A DNA stretch of 64,000 nucleotides from Alphaproteobacteria bacterium (lineage in GTDB: Bacteria > Pseudomonadota > Alphaproteobacteria > Micavibrionales > UBA2020), in contig JAICWS010000002.1 of NCBI GenBank assembly GCA_025934695.1, positions 770,230-834,229 on the forward strand. The letters are read 5' to 3'. The notes under the pieces are model-generated. The model was not told the DNA's origin and ran no database searches. It saw nothing but the letters and a program-made list of their open reading frames with translations. The position numbers were made by a program, and so were the translations under genes. How positions within the stretch are numbered: position 1 is the stretch's first letter; every line of letters starts with the position of its first letter. This document shows, piece after piece, positions 23,988 through 64,000 of this stretch.

Positions 23988-24064
23988 TGGTGCGCCCGGC
24001 GGGAGTCGAACCCACAACCTTTGGCTTCGGAGGCCAACACTCTATCCAGTTGAGCTACGGGCGC
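23988..24064 (-). tRNA. tRNA-Arg (anticodon CCG), 77 nt with encoded CCA
   Basis: The reverse complement folds as a cloverleaf. Acceptor stem GCGCCCG/CGGGCGC, D arm GCTC...GAGT, anticodon stem TTGGC/GCCAA with loop CT-CCG-AA, T arm GTGGG-TTCGACT-CCCGC, then discriminator A and CCA. Confidence 0.95.
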
Positions 24065-35915: not shown

Positions 35916-36647
35916 ATGGCGGCGAGAAAATTCCGTCCTACCCTGCTTTCCAGTCTCATCACTTTTGCGCTTTTCGGCGTCATGATCTGGCTCGGTACCT
36001 GGCAGGTGCACCGCATGCACTGGAAAGAAAGCATGCTGGCCCAGATCAATGAAAATATGGCCCGCAAGCCGGTGCCGATGCCCGAGAAGATCGACAATCC
36101 GGAGGACTGGAAGTTCCGGCGGGTGACGCTGGCGGGTTCGTTCGACTACAGCCACGAAATGCTCGTGAAGCCGCGCACCCTGGACGGTGCAGTGGGTTAT
36201 GACATGGTGGTGCCCTTTATTCGCGCTTCCGGCGGCACGGTGCTGGTCGACCGGGGCTGGATTTCCGACGCGCTGATGGACAAGGCCAGCCGCCCCGACC
36301 ACGGCATGATGCAGATCGAAGGCGTCCTGCGCACGCCGGAAAAGCCCAGCTTCTTCACGCCCGACAACAACCCCGCCAAGAAGGACTGGTTCTGGACCGA
36401 CGTCAAAGGCATGGCGGATGCCGCGGGTCTGGAGGATGTCGCACCGATGGTTCTCTATATCTCGGCCAAGCAGCCCGGCGTCTACCCCGTCGGCGGCCGC
36501 GTGCAGGGCCTCCAGGTCGCCATTCTTCCGAACGACCACAAGCAATATGCGATTTTTTGGTTCGGCATGTCCTTCGTGCTGCTGATCGTCTGGTTTTTGT
36601 CGCATCTTGAACGCGCGTCTTTAGAGGAAAAACATGCAAGCCTATAA
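35916..36647 (+). CDS. SURF1 family cytochrome oxidase biogenesis protein
   Basis: Start placed at MAARKFRPTLL. Motifs LGTWQVHRMHWKESML, and a C-terminal TM helix after HKQYAIFWFGMS. Confidence 0.9.
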   Translation: MAARKFRPTLLSSLITFALFGVMIWLGTWQVHRMHWKESMLAQINENMARKPVPMPEKIDNPEDWKFRRVTLAGSFDYSHEMLVKPRTLDGAVGYDMVVPFIRASGGTVLVDRGWISDALMDKASRPDHGMMQIEGVLRTPEKPSFFTPDNNPAKKDWFWTDVKGMADAAGLEDVAPMVLYISAKQPGVYPVGGRVQGLQVAILPNDHKQYAIFWFGMSFVLLIVWFLSHLERASLEEKHASL

Positions 36648-43048: not shown

Positions 43049-43100
43049 TAAAGAATAAGCCTGAAAAGGTGTGTGTGGCTTTATTTGTCGGGGTCCAATC

Positions 43101-46448: not shown

Positions 46449-48299
46449 ATGCACATGCTGCGGCAGGCCGCCCTTGTCCTTGCGCTGACCCTGATCTCCT
46501 TCCTCGCCGCACAGGCGGAGGAGGCGCCCCAGCCCAAGCCTTCCATCGCGATGTACGGCGAAACGAAATACCAGCCCGGCTTTGCACACGTCGACTACGC
46601 GAACCCTGAGGCGCGGAAGGGCGGCGAGATGCATCTCGCCGAAGAAGGGACTTTTGATACGCTGAACCCCTTCGTGCTCAAGGGCTTGGCGGCGCCCGCT
46701 GTCGCCGGCATGCTGTTCCAGACCCTGACCACGGGCACCGAGGACGAACCGTTTTCCCGCTACGGCCTCGTCGCCGAGACGATCGAGATGCCCGAGGACC
46801 GCAGCTGGGTCGCCTTCAACCTGCGCAAGGAGGCGAAGTTCAACGACGGCACGCCGATCACCGCCGACGACGTCGTGTGGACTTTCAATACGCTCATGGA
46901 AAAGGGCCATCCGTTTTTCAAGGCCTATTATGCCAAGGTCGCCAAGGCCGAGGCGACCAGCCCATCGCGCGTCAAGTTCACCTTCAGCATGGCCAATAAC
47001 CGCGAGCTGCCCCTGATCATGGGCGAGCTGCCGGTCATGTCGAAGCATTACTGGGAAGGCAAGACCTTCGACGCCTCGACGCTGGAAGCGCCCTTGGGCA
47101 GCGGCCCTTACCGCGTTAAATCGGTCGACCAGGGCCGCCGCATCACCTTCGAGCGCGTGAAGGACTGGTGGGCGAAAGATCTGCCGATCGTGAAAGGGAT
47201 GTATAACTTCGACACTATCGTCATCGACATGTATCGCGACGAAACGGTGCTGTTCCAGGCCTTTTTCTCCGGCGAATACGATTTCCGCCAGGAAAACGTC
47301 GCCAAGAACTGGGCCGCCGAATATGACGAAAAGAAGCCCGTCAAGGAGGGGCTGATCAAGAAGGCGGAGATCAAGCACAGCCTGCCCACCGGCATGCAGG
47401 CTTTCGCCTACAACATCCGCAAGCCCGTATTCCAGGATCCGCGCGTGCGCGAAGCGCTGGGCTACGCCTTCGACTTCGAATGGTCGAACAAGCAGTTCGC
47501 CTACGGCACCTATGCGCGCACGCACAGCTATTTCGAGAATTCGGACATGGCAGCCACCGGCCTGCCCACCGGCAAGGAGCTCGAGATCCTGCAGCAGTAT
47601 AAGGGCAAGATCCCGGACGAGGTCTTCACCAAGGAATTCACGCTGCCCACGACCGACGGCAGCGGCAACGGCATCCGCGACAATCTGGCCAAGGCGAAGG
47701 AACTGCTGACGCAGGCCGGCTGGAAGATCGGTTCCAGCGGCGTGCTCGAAAAGGACGGTCAGCCCTTCAAGTTCGAAATCCTCATCGACAGTCCGGCATT
47801 CGAGCGCTGGATCCTGCCCTTCATCGGCAACCTGAAGAAACTGGGCGTCGTGGCCAACTTGCGCAACGTCGATACCGCGCAGTACCAGCACCGCATCGAG
47901 AACTTCGATTTCGACATGACGGTGCATTCCTTCGGCCAGTCGCTGTCGCCCGGCAACGAGCAGCGCGACTACTGGGGTTCTGACAAGGCCGATGTCCACG
48001 GCAGCCGCAACATCATCGGCATCAAAAACCCGGTCCTCGACGATCTCATCCAAAAGCTGGTCAGCGCGAAGGATCGTGAAGAACTCGTGGCCATCTGTCA
48101 CGCCATGGACCGCGTGCTACTGTGGAATTATTATGTGATCCCCCAATGGTATCATCCCGCCTGGTGGATCGCCTATTGGGACAAATTCGGCCGCCCCGAG
48201 ACTGCCCCCAAATACGGACTGGGCGTTCCCGAAACCTGGTGGTACGACGCCCAGAAGGCTGCTAAAATTGCGGAAAAAGCGCCGGAGAAAAAACAATAG
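46449..48299 (+). CDS. yejA: ABC transporter periplasmic substrate-binding protein, family 5 (YejA-like peptide/microcin C type)
   Basis: Signal peptide MHMLRQAALVLALTLISFLAAQA. About 600-aa SBP_bac_5 architecture. First gene of a yejABEF-ordered operon. Confidence 0.88.
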   Translation: MHMLRQAALVLALTLISFLAAQAEEAPQPKPSIAMYGETKYQPGFAHVDYANPEARKGGEMHLAEEGTFDTLNPFVLKGLAAPAVAGMLFQTLTTGTEDEPFSRYGLVAETIEMPEDRSWVAFNLRKEAKFNDGTPITADDVVWTFNTLMEKGHPFFKAYYAKVAKAEATSPSRVKFTFSMANNRELPLIMGELPVMSKHYWEGKTFDASTLEAPLGSGPYRVKSVDQGRRITFERVKDWWAKDLPIVKGMYNFDTIVIDMYRDETVLFQAFFSGEYDFRQENVAKNWAAEYDEKKPVKEGLIKKAEIKHSLPTGMQAFAYNIRKPVFQDPRVREALGYAFDFEWSNKQFAYGTYARTHSYFENSDMAATGLPTGKELEILQQYKGKIPDEVFTKEFTLPTTDGSGNGIRDNLAKAKELLTQAGWKIGSSGVLEKDGQPFKFEILIDSPAFERWILPFIGNLKKLGVVANLRNVDTAQYQHRIENFDFDMTVHSFGQSLSPGNEQRDYWGSDKADVHGSRNIIGIKNPVLDDLIQKLVSAKDREELVAICHAMDRVLLWNYYVIPQWYHPAWWIAYWDKFGRPETAPKYGLGVPETWWYDAQKAAKIAEKAPEKKQ

Positions 48300-48348
48300 C
48301 CCGAGCTTAAGGGCTTAAAGGCTTAAAGGCGCCCTTGGGGTTCGTTCA

Positions 48349-49467
48349 GTGGCCGCATATATCATCCGCCGCCTGCTGCTCATGATACCGACGCTGTTCG
48401 GCATCATCCTGATCAATTTTCTCATCATCCAGCTGGCCCCGGGCGGCCCGGTCGAGCAGATGATCGCCAAGCTGCAGGGGATGGATGTTTCCGCGACGCA
48501 GCGTTTTTCCGGCGGTGGCAGCGATACCAGCCTTTCCAGTCAGCAATCCCAGGCGGCGATGAACATGTCGAGTGGCGCGTCGAAATACCGCGGCGCGCAG
48601 GGCCTGCCGCCTGAATTCATCGCCAGTCTCGAAAAGCAGTTCGGCTTCGACAAGCCGCTGCACGAGCGCTTCTTCCTGATGCTGAAGAACTACCTGACGT
48701 TCGATTTCGGCAAGAGCTATTTCCAGGACAAAAAGGTGACCGACCTGCTGCTGGAAAAGATGCCGGTCTCGATCTCGCTCGGCCTGTGGGCGACACTGCT
48801 GATCTATATGATCTCCATTCCGCTCGGCATTGCGAAGGCGGTACGCGACGGATCGAAGTTCGATGTCTGGTCCAGCGTCGTCATTATCGTGGGGCATTCA
48901 ATCCCGCAGTTCCTCTTCGCCATTCTGCTCGTCATCGTCTTCGCGGGCGGCAAATACCTGAATATCTTCCCGCTGCGGGGCCTGACCTCCGACAACTGGC
49001 ACGAGATGGACTGGCCGCACCGCATCCTCGACTATTTCTGGCATATCACGTTGCCTGTCACCGCCAGCGTCATCACCGGCTTCGCGGGACTCACCATCCT
49101 GACCAAGAACTCCTTCCTCGAGGAGGTGAGCAAGCTCTACGTGCTGACCGCGCGGGCCAAAGGGCTGACCGAGCATAGAATCCTTTATGGACACGTGTTT
49201 CGCAATGCGATGCTGATCGTGATCTCGCAGATCCCGGGCAGCCTGCTCGGCATTTTCCTGACGGGATCGGTCCTGATCGAGGTGATCTTCTCCCTCGACG
49301 GCTTAGGATTGCTGGGTTACGAATCCACGCTCAACCGCGATTATCCCGTCATGTTCGCGACACTGTATATTTTCACCATCTTCGGGATGCTCATCACGCT
49401 GATCAGCGACCTGACCATGACCTGGGTTGACCCGCGCATCGACTTTCGCGCGCTGGAGGGCCGCTGA
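48349..49467 (+). CDS. yejB: ABC transporter permease (YejB-like)
   Basis: GTG start. N-terminal YIIRRLLLMIPTLFGIILINFLIIQLAPGGP. Binding-protein-dependent permease fold. Confidence 0.9.
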   Translation: MAAYIIRRLLLMIPTLFGIILINFLIIQLAPGGPVEQMIAKLQGMDVSATQRFSGGGSDTSLSSQQSQAAMNMSSGASKYRGAQGLPPEFIASLEKQFGFDKPLHERFFLMLKNYLTFDFGKSYFQDKKVTDLLLEKMPVSISLGLWATLLIYMISIPLGIAKAVRDGSKFDVWSSVVIIVGHSIPQFLFAILLVIVFAGGKYLNIFPLRGLTSDNWHEMDWPHRILDYFWHITLPVTASVITGFAGLTILTKNSFLEEVSKLYVLTARAKGLTEHRILYGHVFRNAMLIVISQIPGSLLGIFLTGSVLIEVIFSLDGLGLLGYESTLNRDYPVMFATLYIFTIFGMLITLISDLTMTWVDPRIDFRALEGR

Positions 49468-50495
49468 TGGCCCTGTCCTCCATCATGCAGCGGCGCATCC
49501 AGCAGTTCAGGCGCAACAAGCGCGCCTACTGGTCGCTGTGGATTTTCCTGTCGCTTTTCATCGTCAGCCTTTTCGCCGAAGTCGTCGCGAACGACAAGCC
49601 GCTCCTCGTGCATTACGCCGGTGGCTGGTATGTGCCGGCCATGAAAACCTATCCCGAGACCGCGTTCGGCGGCGAGTTCGAGACGGAAGCGGATTACCGC
49701 GACCCCGTCGTGCAGAAGCTGATCGACGCCAAGGGCTGGATGGTCTGGCCGCCCATCCATTATTCCTACCAGACCATCAATTATAACCTGACCGTTCCGG
49801 CACCCGCGCCGCCGTCGGCCGAGAACTGGCTCGGCACCGACGACCAGGGCAGGGACCTGCTGGCGCGGCTCATCTACGGCTTTCGCATCTCGGTCGTTTT
49901 CGGCCTGATCCTGACCGTCATCAGCAGCGCCATCGGCATCACGATCGGCGCCATCGCCGGATACCGCGGCGGGCTTTTCGACCTTTTGTCCCAGCGTTTC
50001 ATGGAAATATGGGACAGCATGCCGATGCTCTACATGCTGATGATCATGGCGAGCGTGATCACGCCGGGCTTCTTCTCGCTATTGGGGCTGATGCTGCTGT
50101 TCTCCTGGATGCGCCTCGTCGGCGTCGTGCGGGCGGAATTCCTCAAAGCCCGCAACCTCGATTATATCCGCGCCGCCAAGGCGCTTGGCCTCTCCACCCC
50201 CGCGATCATCTTCAAGCACGCGCTGCCCAACGCGATGGTGGCGACGGTGTCGATGATGCCTTTCGTGGTCTCGGCTTCGGTCACGACGCTCACCAGCCTC
50301 GACTTCCTCGGCTTCGGCATGCCGCCGGGATCGCCGTCGCTGGGCGACATCGTGCTGCAGGGCAAGAATAACCTGCAGGCGCCCTGGCTCGGCATCACGG
50401 CCTTCCTGTCGCTCGCCACCATGCTGTGCCTCTTCACCTTCATCGGCGAGGGCGTGCGCGACGCCTTCGATCCGCGCAAAATTTTCAGGGAGTGA
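49467..50495 (+). CDS. yejE: ABC transporter permease (YejE-like)
   Basis: The ATG overlaps the yejB stop (TGATG). Motifs WLGTDDQGRDLLARLIYG and the EAA-type loop YIRAAKALGLS. Confidence 0.9.
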   Translation: MALSSIMQRRIQQFRRNKRAYWSLWIFLSLFIVSLFAEVVANDKPLLVHYAGGWYVPAMKTYPETAFGGEFETEADYRDPVVQKLIDAKGWMVWPPIHYSYQTINYNLTVPAPAPPSAENWLGTDDQGRDLLARLIYGFRISVVFGLILTVISSAIGITIGAIAGYRGGLFDLLSQRFMEIWDSMPMLYMLMIMASVITPGFFSLLGLMLLFSWMRLVGVVRAEFLKARNLDYIRAAKALGLSTPAIIFKHALPNAMVATVSMMPFVVSASVTTLTSLDFLGFGMPPGSPSLGDIVLQGKNNLQAPWLGITAFLSLATMLCLFTFIGEGVRDAFDPRKIFRE

Positions 50496-50503
50496 GTTTC
50501 GAT

Positions 50504-52117
<1,614 letters not shown>

Positions 52118-52526: not shown

Positions 52527-52546
52527 ATGCCAGCGTGCGCTGGCAT
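52527..52546 (-). terminator. Hairpin 14 nt downstream of the oxidoreductase stop (minus strand)
   Basis: ATGCCAGCG-tg-CGCTGGCAT. There is no U-tract of its own, so it may act together with the adjacent palindrome read on the minus strand. Confidence 0.4.
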
Positions 52547-52559
52547 GGCAATTAAATCT

Positions 52560-55500
52560 TTAAGCGGCCTTCTTCTGTTCCGGCGCGGCGGGGCGGCCGA
52601 ATTTTTCCAGCAGGGCGGCTTCGGCCGCCTTCGCCTTTTTCAGGTGTTCTTCCTTCACATGGCCATAGCCCCGGATATGCTCGGGGATGGAGGCGATCTC
52701 GACAGCGACCTCGTAGTTCGCGCCATTGAGGCGCGCCAGGATATCCTCCAGCGTGCGCTTGTAATCCTTGATCAGCTGGCGTTCCATGCGGCGTTCGGCG
52801 GTATAGCCGAAGATGTCGAGCGGCGTGCCGCGCAAGGACTTCATCTTGGCGAGCACCTTGAACGCCTGCAGCACCCAGGGGCCGAATTCCATCTTCTGCA
52901 GCTGCCCGGTCACGGCATCGCGCTTGGCGAGCAGGGGCGGGGCCATGTTGAAGCGCAGCTTGTAATCGCCGCCGAAAGTGTTCTTGAGCTGCGAGATGAA
53001 CTGCCCGTCGGTATAAAGACGCGCGACCTCGTATTCGTCCTTGTAGGCCATCAGCTTGTAGTAATAGCGGGCGACGGCTTCCGTGAGCTTGCCGGGGTTG
53101 CCTTTCAGCCTGATCTCGGCTTCGCGCACTGTGTCGACGAGCGCCTTATAGCGGTTCGCGTAGGCGGCGTTCTGGTAGCCGGTCAGCGACATCATGCGGC
53201 GGTCGATGATTTCCTCGAGCGAGGTCGAGATCTGGCGGTGGCGGTCGGAACCGTCGGCTGCTTTCGAGGGCGTCGCGATTTCCTGCACCTTCGCGAGGTT
53301 CCAGGCGGCTCGACGACCCCAGACGAAGGCCTGCTGGTTCATCGGGATGGAGACGCCGTTGAGCTCGATAGCCTTCATGATGGCCTCGCGCCCGACTGGC
53401 ACATAGCCAAGCTGCCAGGCATAGCCCAGCATGAACATGTTGGTCGCGATGGAATCGCCCGACAAGGCAGTCGCGATCTGGGTCGCGTCGAGCGTGGAGA
53501 GGTTGTTTTCGCCGCACAGGTTCGCGATGGCGCTCAGGACCTTGTTGGTCGGAATGTTCCAGTCCGGCTTGTGGGTGAATTCGCCGGTCTGCGCCTTATG
53601 CGTGTTCAGGATGATCTTGGTCTCACTGTCGGAACCCTTGGGACGGATTTTCGACAGGCAGTCGCCGTCCGCTGTCACCAGCATGTCCGCGCCGATGATG
53701 ACGTTCGCGCCGGCGATGCCGATGCGCACAGTGTTGATTTCGTCCGGCGTCTTCGCGAGGCGGATATGGCTCGTCACCGCGCCGCCCTTCTGGGCGAGGC
53801 CGGTCTGGTCCATGGTGGTGGCGCCCTTATTCTCGATATGCGCCGCCATGGCCAGGATCGCGCCGATGGTCACGACGCCCGTGCCACCCACGCCCGTCAC
53901 GAGGATGGCGACCGGCTTGTCGACATCGCCCATCTGCGGTTCTGGCATCGCCTTGAAGAATTCGTCCACCGCCGCGTCGGCTTTGGCCACTTCCGGCTTT
54001 TTGAGGCCGCCGCCCAGGACGGTCACGAAGCTGGGGCAGAAGCCTTTGACGCAGGAGAAATCTTTATTGCAGGTCGATTGGTCGATCTGGCGCTTGCGGC
54101 CGAATTCGGTCTCGACCGGCGCGACCGACAGGCAGTTCGATTTCTTGCCGCAGTCGCCGCAACCTTCGCAGACGCGCTCGTTGATCAGCACGCGCTTGGC
54201 GGGATCTTCCATCAGGCCGCGCTTGCGGCGGCGGCGTTTTTCGGCGGCGCAGGTCTGGTCGTAAATGAGGATCGTGACACCCGGGGTTTCGCGCAATTTG
54301 CGCTGCACTGCATCCAGACTGTCGCGATGCTCGATGGTGGTGCCGTTGGGGAAGCGCGCCGCGCCATATTTCCACGGCTCGTCCGAAACAATGTAGATCG
54401 TCTTGATGCCTTCGGCCGCCAGCTGGTCCGTCAGCATCGGCACGGTCAGCTGCCCGTCGACATGCTGGCCGCCGGTCATGGCGACGGCGTCGTTATAGAG
54501 GATTTTGTAGGTGATGTTGACGTTGGCGGCGACCGCGGCGCGGATCGCGAGCAGGCCGGAATGGAAATAGGTGCCGTCGCCCAAATTCGCGAAGACGTGT
54601 TTTTCGGTAGTGAAGGGCGACTGGCCGATCCAGGGCACGCCTTCGCCGCCCATCTGCGTGAACATGACGGTGGAACGGTCCATCCACATCGCCATGTAAT
54701 GGCAGCCGATGCCGGCGAGCGCGCGGCTGCCTTCCGGGACGACGGTCGAAGTGTTGTGCGGACAGCCCGAGCAATACCATGGCATGCGCACGACCGGCGC
54801 GGGCTTGCCTTTCAGGTCGAAATTCTTGTGGATGAGCGCCATGCGGCTCGCGAAGGCCGAGGTGTCCGTCATCGGCGCCAGGCGCTTGATCAGCGCGTCG
54901 GCGATCTGTCCCGGCGACAGTTCATATGTTTCCGGCAGCAAGGGCGCGCCTTTGTCATCCGTCTTTCCGGTGACGCGCGGGCGCTTATCGGCGGGCATAT
55001 TGAAGAGGATTTTCTTGATCTGCTCTTCGATCAATCCGCGCTTTTCCTCGACGACGAAAAGTTCTTCCACTTCACTGGCGATCTTCTGGATGCCGACCGG
55101 ATCGAGCGGCCAGACGAGCGCGATCTTGTAGACCGCGATGCCCATTTCCTCGGCGCGCTTGTTGGTGATGCCGAGGTCGTCGAGCGCTTGCATCGTATCC
55201 ATCCAGCCCTTGCCGGTTGCGACGATGCCGAGGCGCTTCTTCGCCGGATTGATGATGAAACGGTCGAGGCCATTAGCACGCGCATAGGCCTGCGCGGCGG
55301 GCAACTTGAGACGAATAAGACGATCTTCCTGCTCGACCGGCGGATCGTACCAGCGGATGTTCAGCCCTTCCTTCGGCATGTCGAAATCGGTGGGCAGCCG
55401 GAACGCGAGCGCGAAAGGATCGGTCGAGACAGAAGCGGAAGAGTCCGCGAAATCGGAAATGATCTTGAATGCCGTCCAGCAGCCCGAATAGCGCGACATG

Positions 55501-56060
55501 GCGATCCCGTGCAGGCCGAGGTTCAACGCGTCCTCGATCCCGGCGGGGTGCAGGACGGGGATCATCGCGTGGATGAAAGCATGTTCCGACTGGTGCGGGA
55601 AAGTGGAGGATTTGCAGGCATGGTCGTCGCCCGCCAGCGCCAGGACGCCGCCATGTTTCGAGGTGCCTGCGCCGTTAGCGTGCTTGAGGACGTCAACGGA
55701 ACGGTCGACGCCTGGGCCCTTGCCGTACCACATGCCGACGACGCCGTCATAGGCGGCGCCGGGACCGAGATTGAGTTGCTGGCTGCCCCAGACGGCGGTC
55801 GCGCCCAGGTCTTCGTTCACGCCGGGGACAAACTTGATGTCATGCTCTTCCAGGAACTTGCGGGCGCTTTTGAGGGCCATATCCAGTCCGCCCAAAGGGG
55901 ACCCCCGGTAACCCGAGATAAAAGTGCCCGTTTTAAGGCCTTTGGACGTGTCCAGCTGGTGCTGCATGATCGGAAGGCGCACGAGGGCCTGGAGGCCGTT
56001 CAGGTAGATCCGGCCCGCTTTTTCGGTGTATTTATCGTCGAGTGTGACTGTATCGCGCAT
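52560..56060 (-). CDS. Indolepyruvate:ferredoxin oxidoreductase family protein (fused alpha/beta)
   Basis: About 1166 aa from MRDTVTLDDKY (ATG 56060). Upstream alternatives are ATG 56126 and TTG 56132. Motifs YLNGLQALVRLP, the TPP-binding region GDGTYFHSG, and the ferredoxin-type cluster CEGCGDCGKKSNC. Confidence 0.92.
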   Translation of the reverse strand: MRDTVTLDDKYTEKAGRIYLNGLQALVRLPIMQHQLDTSKGLKTGTFISGYRGSPLGGLDMALKSARKFLEEHDIKFVPGVNEDLGATAVWGSQQLNLGPGAAYDGVVGMWYGKGPGVDRSVDVLKHANGAGTSKHGGVLALAGDDHACKSSTFPHQSEHAFIHAMIPVLHPAGIEDALNLGLHGIAMSRYSGCWTAFKIISDFADSSASVSTDPFALAFRLPTDFDMPKEGLNIRWYDPPVEQEDRLIRLKLPAAQAYARANGLDRFIINPAKKRLGIVATGKGWMDTMQALDDLGITNKRAEEMGIAVYKIALVWPLDPVGIQKIASEVEELFVVEEKRGLIEEQIKKILFNMPADKRPRVTGKTDDKGAPLLPETYELSPGQIADALIKRLAPMTDTSAFASRMALIHKNFDLKGKPAPVVRMPWYCSGCPHNTSTVVPEGSRALAGIGCHYMAMWMDRSTVMFTQMGGEGVPWIGQSPFTTEKHVFANLGDGTYFHSGLLAIRAAVAANVNITYKILYNDAVAMTGGQHVDGQLTVPMLTDQLAAEGIKTIYIVSDEPWKYGAARFPNGTTIEHRDSLDAVQRKLRETPGVTILIYDQTCAAEKRRRRKRGLMEDPAKRVLINERVCEGCGDCGKKSNCLSVAPVETEFGRKRQIDQSTCNKDFSCVKGFCPSFVTVLGGGLKKPEVAKADAAVDEFFKAMPEPQMGDVDKPVAILVTGVGGTGVVTIGAILAMAAHIENKGATTMDQTGLAQKGGAVTSHIRLAKTPDEINTVRIGIAGANVIIGADMLVTADGDCLSKIRPKGSDSETKIILNTHKAQTGEFTHKPDWNIPTNKVLSAIANLCGENNLSTLDATQIATALSGDSIATNMFMLGYAWQLGYVPVGREAIMKAIELNGVSIPMNQQAFVWGRRAAWNLAKVQEIATPSKAADGSDRHRQISTSLEEIIDRRMMSLTGYQNAAYANRYKALVDTVREAEIRLKGNPGKLTEAVARYYYKLMAYKDEYEVARLYTDGQFISQLKNTFGGDYKLRFNMAPPLLAKRDAVTGQLQKMEFGPWVLQAFKVLAKMKSLRGTPLDIFGYTAERRMERQLIKDYKRTLEDILARLNGANYEVAVEIASIPEHIRGYGHVKEEHLKKAKAAEAALLEKFGRPAAPEQKKAA

Positions 56061-56322
56061 CCCTTTTACCGCACCGTCGTTTCCCGATTCTTGGTTCAGG
56101 AGTAAGGTAGTGGGGCGAGGGCCCATAAGCAATATAATTTCGTGGCCGATTGCGATAATATTTTTTCAAATTGCCCCAATAAATCAAAGGTATGAGCCGA
56201 ATTTTTATGTTGCGGCGCACCATTTGAACTGGTTAACAAATTATTATCAGAATCGCTTGTGTTTTGACAGAAGCTTACGTAATATGTAAAACGATTGGAT
56301 AGGTAATAGAGAGAATCTGACC

Positions 56323-56625: not shown

Positions 56626-56768
56626 TGACCCCTAACATATCTTCCTTCCGGAGCGGCTTCGAAAAAGCCGGTGCCAAGCTCTTCCGCGTCGATCCGCGCA
56701 AGGCGACCAACGACGCCGCGCGTTTCTTCCTCGAGATTCTCAAGAAAATGCCCGTCGAGCAGGAGTGA
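56622..56768 (+). CDS. Hypothetical small protein, 48 aa (not in the track)
   Basis: Product is MMTPNISSFRSGFEKAGAKLFRVDPRKATNDAARFFLEILKKMPVEQE. GC3-rich. The overlapping alternative frame (track ORF start 56671) reads as a Ser/Arg/Pro-rich out-of-frame artefact. Confidence 0.4.
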   Translation: MMTPNISSFRSGFEKAGAKLFRVDPRKATNDAARFFLEILKKMPVEQE

Positions 56769-56772
56769 TCGA

Positions 56773-57708
56773 ATGGTCATTATTGACGATTTTGGCGATT
56801 ACGACAGCGCGTCCGAACGTCAAAAACGGCACGAAGCTTCGGATCGCAAGGACCGGTTCCTGATGGCCGCGGGCGCACGTCCCGCAAGCGCCCAGGACTA
56901 CCAGGCCTGGCTCGAAAGCCATCTCGATCATGGCGGCAAGATCGGAAGCGTTGAACAGCGCGCGTTCAATAGCTCCGGCACATACACGATCTCGCGCGAC
57001 GCCGAATTGCCGGCGGGGCTTTGTGGCTCTGATTCCGTACATGTCATCGTGCCCGAGGGCATTACCCTGACTACGAAAAACCGGGGTCATTGCACCGTCT
57101 ATAACATCGCGGACGGCAGTGGCGACGATTTCCGCCAGTCGGTCGTTTATCGCGAAATCCTGCCCTCAATGATCGAGCGCGGCTATGCGCTCGATCAGCT
57201 CGTCCCGCAGAAGGACTGGGAAGGCATTGTCAGCGGCGTTCTTGAAGCGAAGGTCGGCAATATGCGCAAGGCCAGCGTCGCCGATGCCGATGCGATATTG
57301 AAAGTTCTGGGTGCACTCGATCTCGCCTCCGAGGCGAAGCGCCAGCTCGGCCTCGATCCCGCGATGCAGCTGCCCGCGCCGATGCAGAAAGCGGCGGATG
57401 ATTTCAAAGACGGGCTGACCGAGAGCTACAAGGCTTTCCGCTACAAGCTCGATCCTACCAGCCAGACGCCGGGACCGTCGCTGCTCAAGCCCAAGGTCAA
57501 TCCGGCGAAACAGGCGAAACAGGCGATGCAGGTGGCGGTGCAAGCGGCGACGACGGGCGCACCGGAGAAAATCGTTGTCATGCCGCGGCTGAAATTCAAG
57601 GGCGCGGCGCAGCCACCCTCGCCGGCCCCTGCCGCCGCCGCCGCGGATACGGATTCAGCCCCAAAAAAATGGGGTTTTCGGCGGCTTCTCGGCAAGATGA
57701 TGCCCTGA
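56773..57708 (+). CDS. Hypothetical protein, 311 aa, with Pro/Ala-rich basic C-terminus
   Basis: Start placed at MVIIDDFGDYD, 4 nt after the preceding stop. No signal peptide and no known motif. C-terminus ...AAAADTDSAPKKWGFRRLLGKMMP. Confidence 0.6.
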   Translation: MVIIDDFGDYDSASERQKRHEASDRKDRFLMAAGARPASAQDYQAWLESHLDHGGKIGSVEQRAFNSSGTYTISRDAELPAGLCGSDSVHVIVPEGITLTTKNRGHCTVYNIADGSGDDFRQSVVYREILPSMIERGYALDQLVPQKDWEGIVSGVLEAKVGNMRKASVADADAILKVLGALDLASEAKRQLGLDPAMQLPAPMQKAADDFKDGLTESYKAFRYKLDPTSQTPGPSLLKPKVNPAKQAKQAMQVAVQAATTGAPEKIVVMPRLKFKGAAQPPSPAPAAAAADTDSAPKKWGFRRLLGKMMP

Positions 57709-57872
57709 CGGGTCCTCGGCTTATCCGACTGAATCCGTTACCCTTTTTCGATGTTTGTGAAAGGCGGAAACGCGCATAGGCGCAAGAATCCGCTTCCCAA
57801 CGCTGTTTTTTGCGTGTAAAAGGGCCATCTGATTGGCTTAACCTTTTAAACTTAAAGAGATATCGGAAAGGG

Positions 57873-58088
57873 GTGATTACCATCGTACAGGTTATCGTAC
57901 GCGATAATAACGTCGACCAGGCTCTGCGCGCACTCAAGAAAAAGATGCAGCGCGAAGGTCTGTTCCGCGAAATGAAGATCCGCCGCCACTATGAAAAGCC
58001 TTCTGTGAAGAAGGCGCGCGAGCGGTCTGAAGCCGTGAGACGTCATCGCAAGCTCGAGCGCAAACGCAAAGAGCGCGACGGCGATTAG
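57873..58088 (+). CDS. rpsU: 30S ribosomal protein S21
   Basis: GTG start after GGAAAGGGG. Core sequence [40 protein letters not shown]. Confidence 0.93.
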
Positions 58089-58124
58089 GCCGTTATTATC
58101 GGATCACTTATCCGTTAAAAAATG

Positions 58125-58163
58125 AAGGAGCCCGCGCGATGTGCCGGGCTCCTTTTTTATTTT
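58125..58163. terminator. Bidirectional rho-independent terminator (rpsU on +, periplasmic protein gene on -)
   Basis: AAGGAGCCCG...CGGGCTCCTT forms a 10-bp stem, followed by TTTTTTATTTT. An A-rich stretch on the left serves the minus strand. Confidence 0.8.
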
Positions 58164-58175
58164 CGCGAATTTTCC

Positions 58176-58847
58176 TCACTGGCCCGGATGCAGGCGGCTT
58201 TCGCATGCCTTGTAAAAGGCCGGGTTGATGTTCTGATAGGCTGCGCAGGCATCCGCCTGACCCGATGTGCCCGATGCCGCCGTCGGTGTGGGCGCGGACG
58301 CGCCGCCCTGCAGCGACTTGATCAACGCCGCCTTTTGCTCGGGCGACAGGTTCTGGATCTGCTGCGTCAGCGACGCGACCGGATCCGCCGCGGTCGCCGC
58401 CTGCGGCTGGTCCGCCATTTGCTGCTCGGTCGACTTCACGTAGGGCTGAAGCTGGTCGTGCAGCATCTGCTTCTGGTCGTTCGTGAGCATCTTGTCCCAT
58501 TGCGAACCGAAAGATCCGCTGTCGCCGCCCATTGACTTGGCCTGGTTGGTCAGCGCCTCGCGTTGCTCCGGCGACATGTTTTTGAATGTCTCGATCGCCT
58601 GTTGGAGCATGGCGTTGCGCTCCTCGGGCGACATGCCCTGAAACGCCTGCATCGCGGCGTCGGCCGGCGCCGCCGCCGCTCCACCGCCGGTGCCAGACGG
58701 TCCCGGCATTTCGGCGACGCTGTGAAAGGTTGTCGTATCCGCCCCTGGTGGCGTCGTGACGGATTGCTGCGCGAAGGCCGCGGGCGCGACAGCCAGGCCG
58801 ATGCCGAACACACAGGCGACAACCGTTTTTCCGACAATAGTTCTCAT
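58176..58847 (-). CDS. Periplasmic repeat protein with LTXXQ-like (Spy/CpxP-like) motifs
   Basis: Start at MRTIVGKT with an AGGAGG SD. Signal peptide ...APAAFAQ. Repeated MSPEER, MSPEQR, LTNDQK and LSPEQK helices. C-terminal Cys pair. The family call is tentative. Confidence 0.65.
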   Translation of the reverse strand: MRTIVGKTVVACVFGIGLAVAPAAFAQQSVTTPPGADTTTFHSVAEMPGPSGTGGGAAAAPADAAMQAFQGMSPEERNAMLQQAIETFKNMSPEQREALTNQAKSMGGDSGSFGSQWDKMLTNDQKQMLHDQLQPYVKSTEQQMADQPQAATAADPVASLTQQIQNLSPEQKAALIKSLQGGASAPTPTAASGTSGQADACAAYQNINPAFYKACESRLHPGQ

Positions 58848-58947
58848 GGGCACCTCCTGCCGTTGGCCACCCTTCAATTATACCGGAAGATTGCCTACGA
58901 AAGATAAACGAGGGCGAGAGCCTGAAAATATTCGTGAAAACAATAAG

Positions 58948-59889
58948 TTACAGATTGAATGCCGATTTCGGCCGCTTGCCACCGCCCAGCACATAGGCCT
59001 CGTCGGCCTCGCCGCCCAGGCGCTGGAATTCGGCCAGCGCCTTGCGCAGGGCTTCCTCGTTGATACGGTCGAAGCTTTCCGGGGGCGCCAAGGTCTCGGC
59101 GCCCGTCTTCAGGTTTTCGGAGACGACCGTGCGCTCGCGCGCCTCGAAATTGAAAATCTCCGTGACCTTGCGGCCGATGCCGGGATAGAGGCCATTCAGC
59201 GCGACGCGATTTTTTCCCACGAGGCTCCAGCTTTCCGACGTCTCCGCGGACGAGGGCGCGGACGCCACGGCGGGTGTGACGGCAGGCGCGGGTGAAGGCG
59301 CGCCTTTTTGTAGCAGCTTCAGCACATGCGGCTTGGCTTTCGCGAGATCAACCGCGGTCTTTCCCGCCTTGTCCGCGATGTCGGTGCGCGCGCCCGCCTT
59401 GATCAGGCAGTCGACGGTGCTCGTCATTTCCTTCTCGACCGCCCAGTGCAGCGCCGTGCGCCCGTTGGTGCGGATGATCGCATCGAGATCGGCCTGCGCC
59501 GCGATAAGCGCCTTGACGACATCGAGGTCGCCCGCGAAAGCGGCGAGATGGATCGGATAAATGTACTCGGGGCTATGCGTGTTCGGTTTCGCGCCGCCCT
59601 CGATGAGCGCCAGCGCGGCGTTCGGCTTCTTCTCGTCCATCGCGGCCATCAAGGGCGTTTGTCCCTCGCGCGACGGAATATTGGGGTCCGCCCCGAAGCC
59701 GATCAGCATCTGGATAATCCGCACATCGCCCTTTGTCGCCGCGATATGAAGCGCAGTGAGGCCTTTGTCGTCCTGGACGTCGATGCCGAACTTGCGCGGA
59801 ATGTAATAGGTGAGGCAATGCCGGATTTCGTCTGCGTCGCCCGTGCGTGCGGCATTCAGGAAGCTTTTCTTGCTGTGGAACAGGGGCAT
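58948..59889 (-). CDS. Ankyrin-repeat protein with conserved C-terminal module (array member 1)
   Basis: Start at MPLFHSKKSFLNAARTGD (ATG 59889, 2 nt after the upstream stop). ANK repeats (GLTALHIAATKGDVRIIQMLIGFGADPN...). Pro/Ala linker. C-terminal ESWSLVG...TEIFNFEARER...ENLKTGAE...LGG...KSAFNL. Confidence 0.88.
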   Translation of the reverse strand: MPLFHSKKSFLNAARTGDADEIRHCLTYYIPRKFGIDVQDDKGLTALHIAATKGDVRIIQMLIGFGADPNIPSREGQTPLMAAMDEKKPNAALALIEGGAKPNTHSPEYIYPIHLAAFAGDLDVVKALIAAQADLDAIIRTNGRTALHWAVEKEMTSTVDCLIKAGARTDIADKAGKTAVDLAKAKPHVLKLLQKGAPSPAPAVTPAVASAPSSAETSESWSLVGKNRVALNGLYPGIGRKVTEIFNFEARERTVVSENLKTGAETLAPPESFDRINEEALRKALAEFQRLGGEADEAYVLGGGKRPKSAFNL

Positions 59890-59891
59890 GC

Positions 59892-61037
59892 TTAAGGATT
59901 GCCGGCTTGCGGTTTCAGTGTTTTCTTGGCCAGGCGCGCGCCGAAGACGGCCTCGTCGTCGGCCTTGCCGCCCAGATCGCGCAAGGCACGGAGCGCCTTG
60001 TCCAGCAGCCCCTCGGGTGTCGCATCGAAAGACATGGGCTGCGTGACGGTTTCCGCCTGCGTCCGGAGGTTTTCCGAGATGGTGAAACGCTCGCGGCTTT
60101 CGAAATTGAATACTTCCGTCAGACGGCGCAGCAGCGCCGGATGGACGCTGACGCGCGCGACCTTTTCCTCGCCCATCAGCACCCAGGCTTCCGCGTCGCT
60201 CAAGGGGAGCTCGGTCGCCGTCGCATTCAGCGGCGTGGTGCGGCTCGCGATGATTTTTTTCACATGCGGCTCGATAAGCGGCACGATCGCCGCCGCGTGA
60301 TTGGACCGCCGCGCACATTCGAGCGCATCCTGGGACTGGCTGTTGAGAATATCGACGCGCGCCCCGCGGTCGATCAGCAGCTTGACGATATCCGCCTCGC
60401 CGGCGTTGATCGCGGAGTGGAGCGCCGTATTCCTGTAGTCCGCCCGCGCGTTGATATCAGCGCCTTTGTCGAGCAGCGCCTGGGCCAGGTCAAGCTGACC
60501 ATGCATTGCCGCATAATGAAGCGGACGGTATCCATTACTGGCGCGGGCATTGGGATTCGCCCCGGCGTCGATCATGTCTCCAGCCAGTTTCCATGCGCTC
60601 TTCTCAAGCGCCTTCAACAGCGGAGCACCCTTGCTCACATCGGCTTTCGCGTCGAGCAGGAGGCGGGCGATCTCCGTGTTGCTGCCGTGGCGGTTCAGCG
60701 AAAGGCTGAGAATACTTTCGTCATTCGGCATCTCGGCGTTCGGGTCCGCCCCGGCCTTGAGCAGCGCGGCGACAATCTCCTTGGCCCCATCGGGGTTGCG
60801 CAGGACGGCAAGCGCGAGCGGCGTATAGCCAAATTGGCAGGTGGCGTCGACGGGGAATCCCGCCTGGATCAGGGCTTCCACGGTTTCGGTGTGGCCTTCC
60901 TGCGCTGCCAGGTGCAACGCAGTATTTCCATCGTTGCGCGCAGCAAGGCACACCTGCGGCTCGCGCTGCAGGTACTGCCTGACGGCGTCGGTATCGCCCC
61001 GTTCGGCGGCTTTCAGGAAATTCCGCGCGGTGAACAA
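59892..61037 (-). CDS. Ankyrin-repeat protein with conserved C-terminal module (array member 2, largest)
   Basis: Probable TTG start 61037, 7 nt after GGAG, giving (M)FTARNFLKAAERGD like its paralogues. The track start 61079 is also TTG. More ANK repeats than the other members. C-terminal EAWVLMG...TEVFNFESRER...ENLRTQAE...LGG, with a divergent tail KKTLKPQAGNP. Confidence 0.85.
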   Translation of the reverse strand: MFTARNFLKAAERGDTDAVRQYLQREPQVCLAARNDGNTALHLAAQEGHTETVEALIQAGFPVDATCQFGYTPLALAVLRNPDGAKEIVAALLKAGADPNAEMPNDESILSLSLNRHGSNTEIARLLLDAKADVSKGAPLLKALEKSAWKLAGDMIDAGANPNARASNGYRPLHYAAMHGQLDLAQALLDKGADINARADYRNTALHSAINAGEADIVKLLIDRGARVDILNSQSQDALECARRSNHAAAIVPLIEPHVKKIIASRTTPLNATATELPLSDAEAWVLMGEEKVARVSVHPALLRRLTEVFNFESRERFTISENLRTQAETVTQPMSFDATPEGLLDKALRALRDLGGKADDEAVFGARLAKKTLKPQAGNP

Positions 61038-61069
61038 TGGATTGCTCCATAAATACGGTAAACTATCGC

Positions 61070-61098
61070 AATATGGCAAGTTTTTGGCACGACGTCAA
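61070..61098 (-). promoter_or_regulatory. Candidate internal promoter in the only long spacer of the ankyrin array
   Basis: The minus strand reads TTGACG, 17-nt spacer, CATATT, ending about 30 nt upstream of the TTG 61037 start. Confidence 0.3.
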
Positions 61099-61138
61099 TT
61101 CTGTAAATTTGGCCAAAAATCAGCTTGTTAGGAAACGC

Positions 61139-62065
61139 CTACAGATTGAAGGATTTCTTCGCTGCCTTGTCGGCCGGATCTCCGCCCAGTTGCCGGAAGG
61201 CGTCCGCCGCCTGCGCGACCGCGGCATCGGACAGCATGTCGAACTTTTCCGCCGGTCCCATCGTCTCCGCGCCCGTCTTGAGGTTCTCGGTGATGACGAT
61301 GCGCTCGCGGGTCGCAAAGTTGAAAACTTGGGTGATCTTGCGCGCAAGGTCCGGGTAAACGCCGACATGGGCCGCCTTGTCCTCGCCCATGCGCTTCCAG
61401 GTCTCGCTGTCGGCGCAGGCTGCCGCCGGCGCTATCGTCGCGGCAGGAGCTGGCGCTTCTTTCCGGGGCGCCTTGAGCGCCGCGTCGATCATCGCCGCGA
61501 TGCGCGGTTTATTCTGACGCGCATAAGACGCAGGCGTGACTCCATCGGTTCCGGGAATATCGGGCCGCGCGCCCGCGTCCAGCAGGAATTGAACCATGGC
61601 GCCGCGATTTGACGCGACGGCGTAATAAAGTGGCGTACGTTCTTCCGTGGTATTGACGGGATCGATTAGGGCACCGCGCGAAATGAGGTCCTTCGCGGTG
61701 TCGAGATCGCCCAGATGAGCGGCCCAATGCAGTGCATATGAATATGTCGGAGCATGCGCATTGACGTCCGCCCCCGCCGCCATCAGGACTTTCGCGGCTT
61801 CAGGCTTTCCTTCGGAGACGGCAACGAACAGCGGCGTGGCGCCGATAGTGTTGCTGGCCTCAATGTCCGCCTTCATTTCGATCAGGAAGCGGAGCGCCTC
61901 GATCCGGCCATGCTTCGCCGCCAGGTGCAGGGCCGTATTGCCTTCCTTGTCGCGGACGCTGGCCGGCAGATATTCGGGAATATAATAGTCGTAGCAATAC
62001 TTCAGCTCGGCGACATCGCCCGCGGCGGCGGCTTTGAGGAATTTCTTCTGCGGCGATCCGAACAT
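61139..62065 (-). CDS. Ankyrin-repeat protein with conserved C-terminal module (array member 3)
   Basis: N-terminal MFGSPQKKFLKAAAAGD. ANK repeats (GNTALHLAAKHGRIEALRFLIEMKADIE...). C-terminal ETWKRMG...TQVFNFATRER...ENLKTGAE...LGG...KKSFNL. Confidence 0.88.
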   Translation of the reverse strand: MFGSPQKKFLKAAAAGDVAELKYCYDYYIPEYLPASVRDKEGNTALHLAAKHGRIEALRFLIEMKADIEASNTIGATPLFVAVSEGKPEAAKVLMAAGADVNAHAPTYSYALHWAAHLGDLDTAKDLISRGALIDPVNTTEERTPLYYAVASNRGAMVQFLLDAGARPDIPGTDGVTPASYARQNKPRIAAMIDAALKAPRKEAPAPAATIAPAAACADSETWKRMGEDKAAHVGVYPDLARKITQVFNFATRERIVITENLKTGAETMGPAEKFDMLSDAAVAQAADAFRQLGGDPADKAAKKSFNL

Positions 62066-62077
62066 GACGTCCTGCGC

Positions 62078-63025
62078 TTAAAGGTTGAAGGCTTTTTTGG
62101 CGCCCTTGTCGGGCTGCTCGCCGCCCAGCGACTTCAGCTTCTCGGCCGCCCGCGCGAGAATGTCGGGGGAAAGGGCGTCGAACTTTTCGGGCGGCGTCAT
62201 GGTCTCGGCCGCGGTCTTCAGGTTCTCGGTGATGACCGTGCGTTCGCCCGCGGTGAAATTGAAGATCTCGGTCAGCTTGCGGGAAATGGGCGGATAGACG
62301 TTGACATGCGCAAGCGTGTCCGGGGCCAGCAGCATCCAGCTCTCGCCCGCGACGATCGGCTCGTTTGCGGGCGCTTGTGCGGCTGCGGGCTGCGAGACCG
62401 GCACCGGCGCATGCATGCCGCGTTTCTGGGCCGCTTCGATCATTTCCTGCAGCGCCTTGCTACCGATCGCCTTCGCGCGGTCCCAGGCGACGTAATTGTT
62501 GCTGTCCTTCATGTCCGTGCGCGCCCCCTGGTCGAGCAGGAACTGCGCTTCGGGGTTGCGGCGGTTTTCGACCGCCATGTGCAGCGGCGTCTGGAGATAG
62601 CTGCGCGTCACCACGTTGAGGTCCGCGCCCGCGCCCGCCAGCGCCTTGACGGCATCGAGATCGCCGTTGCGCGCCGCCCAGTGCAGCGGATAATAATAGT
62701 CGTTGTCGTGCGCGCTGACGTTCGCGCCCGCCGCGACGAGAAGCTTCGTGGCCTCCGTGCAGCGGTTGTAGCAGGCCCACCACAGGGCGGTGCGTCCCGA
62801 ACTGTCGGCGATTTCCAGGTCGGCCTTCTTCGCGATCAGGATCTTCAGCGTGTCGACCGCGCCCGCCTTGGCCGCGAGGATCAGCGCCGTGCGGCCCGCG
62901 CCGCCGCGCACGTTGATGTCGTATTGCGAAGGAATGTCCTGCGACAGGCAGCGGTTGAGCTCGGCCACATCGCCGCCTGAGGCGGCATTGAGGAATTTTT
63001 TCTGCGGTGAGGATCCGAACATCAT
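62078..63025 (-). CDS. Ankyrin-repeat protein with conserved C-terminal module (array member 4)
   Basis: N-terminal MMFGSSPQKKFLNAASGGD. ANK repeats. C-terminal ESWMLLA...TEIFNFTAGER...ENLKTAAE...LGG...KKAFNL. Confidence 0.88.
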   Translation of the reverse strand: MMFGSSPQKKFLNAASGGDVAELNRCLSQDIPSQYDINVRGGAGRTALILAAKAGAVDTLKILIAKKADLEIADSSGRTALWWACYNRCTEATKLLVAAGANVSAHDNDYYYPLHWAARNGDLDAVKALAGAGADLNVVTRSYLQTPLHMAVENRRNPEAQFLLDQGARTDMKDSNNYVAWDRAKAIGSKALQEMIEAAQKRGMHAPVPVSQPAAAQAPANEPIVAGESWMLLAPDTLAHVNVYPPISRKLTEIFNFTAGERTVITENLKTAAETMTPPEKFDALSPDILARAAEKLKSLGGEQPDKGAKKAFNL

Positions 63026-63031
63026 TGCACC

Positions 63032-63940
63032 TTAAAGGTTAAAAGCTTTCTTCTGGCCGCGCTCGGGAGGCTGGCCGCCCAGGCTTTTCAGCCGGTCTTC
63101 GGCGCGTCCCACCACCTCCTCGCCCAGAGTTTCGAATTTTTCGGGCTGCGCCAGGCTTTCCGCGCCGGTCTTCAGGTTTTCTGCGATGATGACGCGCTCG
63201 CGGTTCTCGAAATTGAAGATCTCGGTGATCCGGCGGCCCATCGATGGATAGTCGGCGATATGCGCCACGCGCGCCGCGCCCATGAGCTTCCAGCTATCGC
63301 CATCTTCCGCCGGAGAAGTTTCGGCTTGCGGCGCTTTCTGTTTCGCGGCGGCGGTGATGATATTCAGGAGGCGGTCGGTTCTCTTGTCGCGCGCATGGTC
63401 GGCAGGCGTCTTGTTGTCGCGGTCGGCGATATCAGTGCGCGCGTGGCTCGCCATCAGGAATTCGACGACCGGCCCGTGGCCGTTGATGACCGCCCAATGG
63501 AGGGCGGTGCGGCCGGTTTCCTTGCTGACGGCATTCAGGTCGGCGCCCGCTGAAACAAGGTCTTTGACGACATCGAGCTGGCCGTAGCGCGCGGCGGTCA
63601 GCAGCGGCGAGACATAGCTGGTCGTATGCGTGTTGACGTCGGCGCCCGACGCGATCAGGAAACGCGCCACGGCGGTCTTGTCGTTGGTGATGGCGATGTG
63701 CAGCGGTGTCTTGCCGTCGCCGTCGGAGATGTTCAGGTCGGCCTTCGCTTCGACCAGCGCTTTGACCGCGTCAAGCTGGCCGCTTTCGGCCGCCAGATAC
63801 AAAGCCGTTTTACCGCTGCCGTTTTTGACGTCGACGCTGAAGTTGCCCGGAACCAGGGCGGAAAGGCAATATAGCAGCTCCGCCATGTCGCCTTTCGCCG
63901 CGGCCTTCAGAAAGGATTTTTTCGAGCTGATGAAAGCCAT
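63032..63940 (-). CDS. Ankyrin-repeat protein with conserved C-terminal module (array member 5)
   Basis: N-terminal MAFISSKKSFLKAAAKGD. ANK repeats (GKTALYLAAESGQLDAVKALVEAKADLN...). C-terminal DSWKLMG...TEIFNFENRER...ENLKTGAE...LGG...KKAFNL. Confidence 0.88.
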   Translation of the reverse strand: MAFISSKKSFLKAAAKGDMAELLYCLSALVPGNFSVDVKNGSGKTALYLAAESGQLDAVKALVEAKADLNISDGDGKTPLHIAITNDKTAVARFLIASGADVNTHTTSYVSPLLTAARYGQLDVVKDLVSAGADLNAVSKETGRTALHWAVINGHGPVVEFLMASHARTDIADRDNKTPADHARDKRTDRLLNIITAAAKQKAPQAETSPAEDGDSWKLMGAARVAHIADYPSMGRRITEIFNFENRERVIIAENLKTGAESLAQPEKFETLGEEVVGRAEDRLKSLGGQPPERGQKKAFNL

Positions 63941-63954
63941 TTACGATCGGTCCT

Positions 63955-64000
63955 TCAGAGATTGAATGTTTTCTTCGGCGCGTCGCCGCCGCCGCCCAGG
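63955..64000 (-). CDS. 3' end of a sixth array member (rest lies right of the window)
   Basis: The minus strand reads ...LGGGGDAPKKTFNL-stop (TGA at 63955-63957). This is the same LGG...KK-x-FNL ending as members 1, 3, 4 and 5. Confidence 0.6.
   Translation of the reverse strand, partial: LGGGGDAPKKTFNL

Follow-up and report, generated by a model that had tools for sequence, protein, structure and literature searches.

A tandem array of ankyrin-repeat genes with a shared, previously undescribed C-terminal domain at a conserved core-genome site of Micavibrio-type alphaproteobacteria

With five complete genes and the 3' end of a sixth on the minus strand, the ankyrin-repeat (ANK) genes at positions 58948-64000 of the DNA analysed here form a tandem array that belongs to an old, lineage-specific multigene family of Micavibrio-type alphaproteobacteria, found at a conserved core-genome site. 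This DNA, hereafter the window, is a stretch of 64,000 nucleotides (nt) from contig JAICWS010000002.1 (assembly GCA_025934695.1, positions 770,230 to 834,229 of the forward strand), assigned to the Micavibrionales. ANK multigene families are already familiar from bacteria living at the expense of other cells. New in the present case are an undescribed C-terminal domain, its obligate fusion to ANK repeats, its restriction to the Micavibrio type, and a core syntenic site that has undergone a lineage-specific tandem expansion. As a tentative explanation, to which we give a probability of about 0.4, the products would be ANK binders that share one docking domain, whose most likely role is in export.

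The array genes, numbered m1 to m6 from the last gene towards the window edge (Table 1), had been described in the initial annotation as six tandem minus-strand paralogues, and this description was confirmed. Pfam ANK repeats were detected in all five complete proteins (Ank_2, E 3e-26 to 2e-37; 92-128 bits against a cutoff of 27.3), which align with one another from end to end at 36-45% identity. What is left of m6 encodes a tail, LGGGGDAPKKTFNL followed by the stop codon, that fits the family tail LGG...KK(A/S/T)FNL, and the DNA repeats D11 and D12 connect the m6 end with the m1 tail; a longer version of this tail, ...KKTLKPQAGNP, terminates m2. The gaps between the genes (14, 6, 12, 101 and 2 nt, read from m6 to m1) are exactly those reported earlier. 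The start of m2 was assigned to a TTG codon at 61037, which has a GGAG just upstream and restores the family N-terminus MFTARNFLKAAERGD. The start of the mechanical open reading frame (ORF) at TTG 61079 was rejected, as this codon lies inside a promoter-like element, and so was a start of m1 as far up as 60318, since homology puts it at 59889. The m5 sequence is identical to the NCBI protein P0031, and P0041 is the m4 protein with its start taken at the second ATG.

Polycistronic expression had been claimed from the short gaps, and the close packing of the genes fits one transcription unit or two. A lone sigma-70-like candidate in the 101-nt gap between m3 and m2 is the sole promoter-like site in 57700-64000, where about 1.2 are expected by chance, and is thus no better than chance. 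This candidate would divide the array into an m6-m3 and an m2-m1 unit and would favour the TTG start at 61037, both of which it suggests weakly. The GC content of the array is typical of the window.

The overall organization of the proteins was examined in a full-length AlphaFold2 (AF2) model of m5, based on an alignment of 141 sequences and having a predicted local distance difference test score (pLDDT) of 93.3. In this model, an ANK domain of six helix pairs (residues 7-202, pLDDT ~98) is followed by a Pro/Ala linker (residues 203-214, pLDDT ~61), the C-terminal module (residues 215-286) and a poorly ordered basic tail (residues 287-302). The number of ANK repeats ranges from 6 to 8 among array members. 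Mean pairwise identity among the five paralogues is 53% in the N-terminus, 38% in the ANK region, 29% in the linker, 48% in the C-terminal module and 53% in the tail. The earlier view that the termini are held constant is therefore only partly sustained: N-terminus, module and tail (53/48/53%) are indeed more conserved than the ANK region (38%), but only moderately so.

A separate N-terminal module had been proposed on the basis of the motif (S/K)KxFL(K/N)AAxxGD, and this proposal was not upheld. The motif falls in helix 7-16 of the m5 model, the Pfam Ank_2 match begins at residue 13, and its sequence resembles the canonical ANK N-cap, as seen in the consensus ANK and GABP-beta caps. As modelled, it belongs to the N-capping ANK repeat, of which it forms the first helix. 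A role of the N-terminus as a secretion or delivery signal was ruled out on the same grounds, namely the Pfam start and the AF2 helix. The absence of a Sec signal, also stated in the initial annotation, was borne out by hydropathy, which revealed neither a signal peptide nor a transmembrane segment in the array proteins (maximum Kyte-Doolittle value over 19 residues ≤1.65), the neighbouring secreted protein used as a control scoring far higher at its N-terminus.

The C-terminal module is predicted to be a domain of about 80 amino acids (aa) with five beta-strands and one helix, followed by a disordered tail. Modelled alone it reached a pLDDT of 90.4 and a predicted template modelling score (pTM) of 0.78 (AF2), and the module-only and full-length m5 models give the same fold. 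A hidden Markov model (HMM) of the last ~90 residues matched the five complete proteins with E-values of 1e-40 to 1e-46, in line with the alignable C-terminal module that had been claimed for the array. Judging from these matches, the module is shared by true homology, and a compositional artefact, which had been raised as a possible explanation of the shared termini, is ruled out for this part of the proteins. When 1.84 billion cluster representatives were searched exhaustively with HMMER, 641 family members were found at E≤1e-3, 285 at E≤1e-10 and 51 at E≤1e-30. Among the matches listed, the module was in every case at the C-terminus, and 130 of the 141 module-bearing representatives scanned carry ANK repeats with essentially no other domain. 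The best-conserved module positions are W5, T27, F30-N31-F32, R35-E36-R37, E42-N43-L44, E49, F57-D58, A68 and L75-G76-G77, the last of which is followed in most members by KAD-E-x-x-V/F.

Database searches with the module yielded no match in Pfam-A, even at E≤10, and none in NCBIfam. In PDB sequences, hmmsearch returned nothing useful (best E 0.004, to a designed helical protein). Foldseek comparisons gave a best E of 0.12 and template modelling (TM) scores ≤0.43 with PDB folds, and a best E of 0.004 with TM ≤0.54 among the predicted viral structures of BFVD, all of these being uncharacterised proteins. The DnaK substrate-binding domain and monellin were rejected as relatives (TM <0.45). The module is thus a previously undescribed domain. 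It was not found by tblastn in plasmid and phage collections and, with a GC content typical of the window, a mobile-element origin of the array was discarded. Three metagenome members of 181-189 aa (P0119, P0102 and P0131) are devoid of ANK repeats and possibly have a divergent second module at the N-terminus, with i-Evalues of 0.09-0.45 that are individually not significant; a second copy, if real, would weakly suggest that the module dimerises.

The family is confined to a narrow set of genomes. A scan of GTDB species representatives revealed 33 family loci, all in metagenome-assembled genomes (MAGs) labelled as Micavibrio sp., 'Bdellovibrionales' (under which NCBI taxonomy places Micavibrio), Alphaproteobacteria or Rhodospirillales, with the exception of one 2.6-kb contig binned as Patescibacteria, which was probably mis-binned. 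A metagenome scan added 6 short family loci, and neither scan brought up a locus nearly identical to the array. The indolepyruvate:ferredoxin oxidoreductase of the window is ~82% identical to those encoded at Micavibrio sp. MAG loci, and the gene order around the array is that of 16-18 relative loci: a glmM-type mutase, an FtsJ-like methyltransferase, aminopeptidase P (M24) and the ANK array, followed by rpsU on the opposite strand, ior and an Opp peptide ABC transporter. Rather than a strain-specific island, synteny comparison thus indicates a core-genome position conserved across the lineage. At this site, tandem copy number grew from 1, 2 or 3 members in relatives to at least six in the window, the largest array seen. 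The family also occurs at other sites, namely as a second type of locus with a single copy (N-terminus MMFEEFL or MMFDNLR) and as further singletons.

Based on a neighbour-joining tree and BLAST, m2 groups with a 'long' subfamily that is present in most relatives' arrays, its closest relatives being L010_8905 and P0024 (46-48% identity). The orthologue of m1, L010_10063, is 56% identical and is likewise placed after a long-type gene. The other complete members, m3, m4 and m5, cluster with the short type starting with MAFIS(S/T)KK, the closest relatives of m3 being P0030 (55%) and the fragment P0001 (80%); the closer relative of m4 is the fragment P0002, as judged by eye and not computed, and that of m5 is the C-type of loci L005, L007 and L022. 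Because each paralogue type has closer relatives elsewhere, the pair m2-m1 appears to be ancestral, and m6-m3 appears to have arisen by an older expansion of the short type. The array copies are old, and recent duplication or gene conversion was rejected, since the DNA repeats shared by members reach no more than 60-84% identity, over stretches of at most 155 nt.

The ratio of non-synonymous to synonymous substitutions (omega) was calculated by the Nei-Gojobori method for three orthologue sets from four related MAGs, and for neighbouring genes. Values for the ANK region and the module were 0.30-0.66 and 0.13-0.17 in the long type, 0.11-0.34 and 0.01-0.33 in Type B, and 0.08-0.22 and 0.09-0.14 in Type C, against ~0.055 for the whole flanking ior and pepP genes. 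A fast ANK region joined to a slow module, as anticipated in the initial annotation, is thus clear in the long subfamily but not in the others. The non-synonymous rate of the family is 2-10x above that of neighbouring genes, which fits interaction proteins, and no gene-wide positive selection was detected among the four MAGs, all pairwise omega values being below 1. The term 'diversifying' had therefore been too strong for this family: every paralogue type has orthologues in other genomes and is kept by purifying selection, and the set is old and differentiated, not hypervariable.

This architecture argues for variable binders with one common docking partner, because a binder and a flexible linker are combined with an invariant, polar-rich small domain and its tail, and because the module is obligately fused to ANK repeats. 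The ANK domain of each paralogue would recognise a different, stable protein partner, while the invariant C-terminal domain and tail would dock all paralogues onto one common partner, most likely a machine for export or translocation in the envelope. The array products might then be delivered outside the cell, to prey or host cells, as effectors. Counted in favour of export are the lack of a Sec signal, the C-terminal position of the constant element, the predator-type lineage, the faster evolution relative to neighbouring genes and the occurrence of a DotA/TraY-family gene 12.7 kb from the array. Substrates of type IV and type I secretion systems (T4SS and T1SS) carry recognition elements at their C-terminus.

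The DotA/TraY-family gene (Table 1) encodes a large polytopic membrane protein that also aligns colinearly with the T4SS_DotA equivalog, at 131 bits and below the cutoff of 500. Homologues in relatives occupy the same syntenic slot (EAL - HAD - DotA/TraY-like - Opp) as 1-4 tandem paralogues. Related loci (L040-L044) have 2-4 paralogues in tandem with lengths of 900-1470 aa, of which some but not all were confirmed as members of the DotA/TraY family, and in several relatives, at least in GCA_028283745.1, the homologues are on the same contigs as ANK loci. DotA-IcmX is the gatekeeper of the Legionella type IVB secretion system (PMC12501162), and Micavibrio in culture lives as an obligate epibiotic predator that is believed to transfer proteins to its prey (PMC3189940). 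A more specific version of the export proposal, in which the module would be a new translocation-recognition domain routing ANK binders into bacterial prey via a non-canonical DotA/TraY-like conduit next to the Opp importer, is a long shot.

Several observations weigh against export. M. aeruginosavorus ARL-13 was reported to be devoid of T3SS (type III secretion system) and T4SS (PMC3189940). No other dot/icm genes were visible in the window, near the DotA/TraY-like homologues or near ANK loci, so that of Dot/Icm systems only the DotA/TraY-family gene was found, and the DotA/TraY-like genes stand alone or as tandem paralogues by the Opp peptide transporter. Neither in the window nor in ~45 related loci do secretion-system genes adjoin the array, and none of the loci showed a canonical secretion cluster. 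The signals known for Dot/Icm substrates are short and disordered, unlike a folded domain of 80 aa. No match was found between the module and solved structures, including the secretion-signal domains in PDB (best Foldseek E 0.12), nor did the ANK proteins match RTX repeats or TIGR03661, a model that does detect the protein encoded at 16318-16884. Finally, the core-genome position, typical GC content, stable orthology and omega values below 1 equally suit a conserved intracellular role.

Comparison with known systems reveals both shared and distinct features. As with the ANK effectors of T4SSs (Legionella AnkB, AnkH, AnkX and AnkY, Coxiella AnkG, Anaplasma AnkA and the Wolbachia ANK families), the array is multi-paralogue, lacks a Sec signal, has its functional determinant at the C-terminus and belongs to a lineage living off other cells, with a DotA/TraY-family gene in the genome. 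In contrast to these effectors, its C-terminal element is a folded domain rather than a short disordered signal, it is part of the syntenic core genome rather than of patchy islands, and its likely targets would be bacterial prey rather than eukaryotic hosts. The NCBIfam equivalogs for Ank effectors (AnkY, AnkH, AnkG, AnkX and others) gave 15-98 bits against cutoffs of 450-1400, matching the ANK repeats only. A variable N-terminal part joined to a conserved globular C-terminal domain and a tail recalls the logic of the Bartonella Bep BID domain and of the Xanthomonas X-Tfe XVIPCD, the X-Tfes being used against bacteria. However, the array modules resemble no PDB entry in either sequence or fold, the N-terminal parts of the array proteins are made only of ANK repeats and not of diverse toxins, and no VirD4-type coupling protein was seen.

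The same architecture could be that of intracellular adaptors or scaffolds, whose ANK domains would bind different clients while the C-terminal domain tethers them to one internal machine (protease, chaperone or polar complex) or oligomerises the paralogues. Although somewhat improbable when taken alone, such a role is nearly as likely as an export-related one. A binder, a flexible linker and a docking element make up the layout of tethering adaptors such as SspB, an analogy only, since there is no homology between them. The proteins have no signal peptide, no secretion genes adjoin the array, and the tight polycistronic spacing suits co-assembly. The locus is syntenic, vertically inherited and part of the core genome, with an ordinary GC content, and for each type of paralogue, orthologues are conserved under purifying selection. 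Dimerisation is also hinted at by the possible second module copy in ANK-less members, yet this lead to oligomerisation is weak and statistically insignificant. Against an adaptor role, no partner was identified, and the occurrence of the family in one predator-type lineage only, together with an evolution 2-10x faster than that of housekeeping neighbours, would be unusual for a basic cellular adaptor.

Self-protection is an unlikely explanation. The products would then be cytoplasmic ANK inhibitors neutralising the hydrolytic enzymes or toxins of the cell itself or of its competitors, comparable to Bd3460 of Bdellovibrio bacteriovorus and to the ANK immunity proteins of polymorphic toxin systems. 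Paralogous immunity genes are commonly found in tandem arrays, and the window is rich in peptidases (M32, S9 and MepK). Bd3460 is reportedly periplasmic, with a signal peptide, and encoded beside its cognate enzyme. The array displays none of this: its products have no N-terminal hydrophobic signal, and no toxin or hydrolase gene is paired with it, either in the window or in relatives, the flanks being pepP, the FtsJ-like methyltransferase, rpsU and ior. Like the array proteins, Bd3460 is an ANK protein of a bacterial predator; it binds bacterial proteins and confers self-protection against the predator's own cell-wall, periplasm-acting DD-endopeptidases (PMC4686830), and many hydrolases are encoded by Micavibrio (PMC3189940). 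The array proteins, in contrast, come without a signal peptide or a partner enzyme gene and have an extra, invariant C-terminal domain that has no role in a simple inhibitor. Matches to PADLOC and NCBIfam models were confined to the ANK region. Defence-system ANK proteins (PADLOC Ankyrin, PDC-M72A and MzaA) were rejected as counterparts, since their matches stop by residue ~197, within the ANK repeats, and neighbouring genes had no matches.

A T1SS is probably present in the source genome, since one of the proteins encoded in the window is of the RTX type and has a T1SS target domain (Table 1). That the C-terminal region of the ANK proteins is an uncleaved T1SS signal, as reported for Ehrlichia Ank200, is nonetheless very doubtful: Micavibrio has a complete T1SS (PMC3189940) and the recognition element would sit C-terminally, as T1SS requires, but the ANK proteins have no T1SS target-domain match or RTX repeats, T1SS signals are usually short and unstructured as opposed to a confidently folded, beta-rich module, and proteins with stable ANK folds are poorly suited as T1SS cargo.

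Almost nothing is known about the way in which epibiotic predators such as Micavibrio kill their prey and drain it from the outside. The locus supplies defined, lineage-wide candidates, a set of differentiated ANK binders carrying one uncharacterised domain, and its conserved neighbourhood also holds tandemly expanded DotA/TraY-like membrane proteins by a peptide importer. No paper tying Micavibrio or Micavibrionales to this ANK family or to DotA was found in the literature. If the module serves as a signal for export, it would establish a new class of substrates and bring bacterial targets of ANK effectors to light; as an internal docking domain, it would define a new adaptor family. Under either reading the ~80-aa domain merits a family entry. 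Should the DotA/TraY-like conduit exist, the array would provide the first molecular handle on prey manipulation by 'leeching' predators, and the first ANK effectors aimed at bacterial targets.

Table 1. Positions of the array genes and of other features in the 64,000-nt window.
Feature	Positions	Strand	Description
m1	58948-59889	-	313 aa, ATG start; last array gene; module ~nt 58951-59241; Pfam Ank_2 E 5e-27; module HMM E 1.2e-41
m2	59892-61037	-	381 aa, 'long' subfamily, two extra ANK repeats; module ~nt 59895-60197; Pfam Ank_2 E 2e-37; module HMM E 2.1e-40
m3	61139-62065	-	308 aa; module ~nt 61142-61411; Pfam Ank E 1.4e-27; module HMM E 6.6e-46
m4	62078-63025	-	315 aa; module ~nt 62081-62350; Pfam Ank_2 E 3e-27; module HMM E 3.5e-45
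m5	63032-63940	-	302 aa; module ~nt 63035-63304; Pfam Ank_2 E 2e-31; module HMM E 1.4e-45
m6	63955-64000	-	last 15 codons and stop, cut by window edge
Sigma-70-like promoter candidate	61070-61098	-	TTGACG-17-CATATT, TG before second hexamer; in the 101-nt m3/m2 gap
DotA/TraY-family gene	43071-46286	+	1071-aa polytopic membrane protein; TIGR04346 211 bits against a cutoff of 100; no Pfam match
RTX-type Ca-binding repeat protein	16318-16884	+	188 aa; T1SS C-terminal target domain TIGR03661, 47.7 bits against a cutoff of 17.6
Secreted protein downstream of the array	58176-58847	-	223 aa; weak DUF3106 match, E 4e-5
Uncertain gene	56671-57708	+	345-aa ORF between ior and rpsU
Indolepyruvate oxidoreductase	52527-56105	+	
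Antisense shadow ORF	52560-56132	-	1192 aa, opposite indolepyruvate oxidoreductase
Peptide degradation/uptake	8158-10122	-	
Peptide degradation/uptake	20932-21612	+	
Peptide degradation/uptake	36634-38175	+	
Peptide degradation/uptake	46449-52117	+	
tRNA-Arg (CCG)	23988-24064	-	sole RNA gene detected in 64 kb

Next to the array, 100 nt downstream and on the same strand, is the gene of a protein that has an evident signal peptide, MRTIVGKTVVACVFGIGLAVAPAAFAQQ, as well as Q/A/P-rich MSPEQR(N/E)A(M/L)-type repeats, and that is not conserved at this position in relatives. The ORF between ior and rpsU had no Pfam, NCBIfam or PADLOC match; with its Pro/Ala-rich C-terminal part, a basic tail, a GC content at third codon positions (GC3) of 0.71, below that of its neighbours, and no conservation in related loci, it is an uncertain gene. 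Long antisense ORFs occur opposite real genes, and those opposite ANK genes form a pseudo-family (cluster c1) across loci; these shadow ORFs are artefacts of high GC3, not genes.

Elsewhere, the window is ordinary chromosome, with alaS, ndk, kdpD/E-like genes, kup, hdaA, pfk, yidC, a cytochrome oxidase operon, thrC, pyrD and others. Genes for peptide degradation and uptake are abundant and include an S9 prolyl oligopeptidase, the L,D-endopeptidase MepK, an M32 carboxypeptidase and a full Opp-type ABC transporter, while aminopeptidase P flanks the arrays of relatives. This richness fits a peptide-based, predator-like nutrition.

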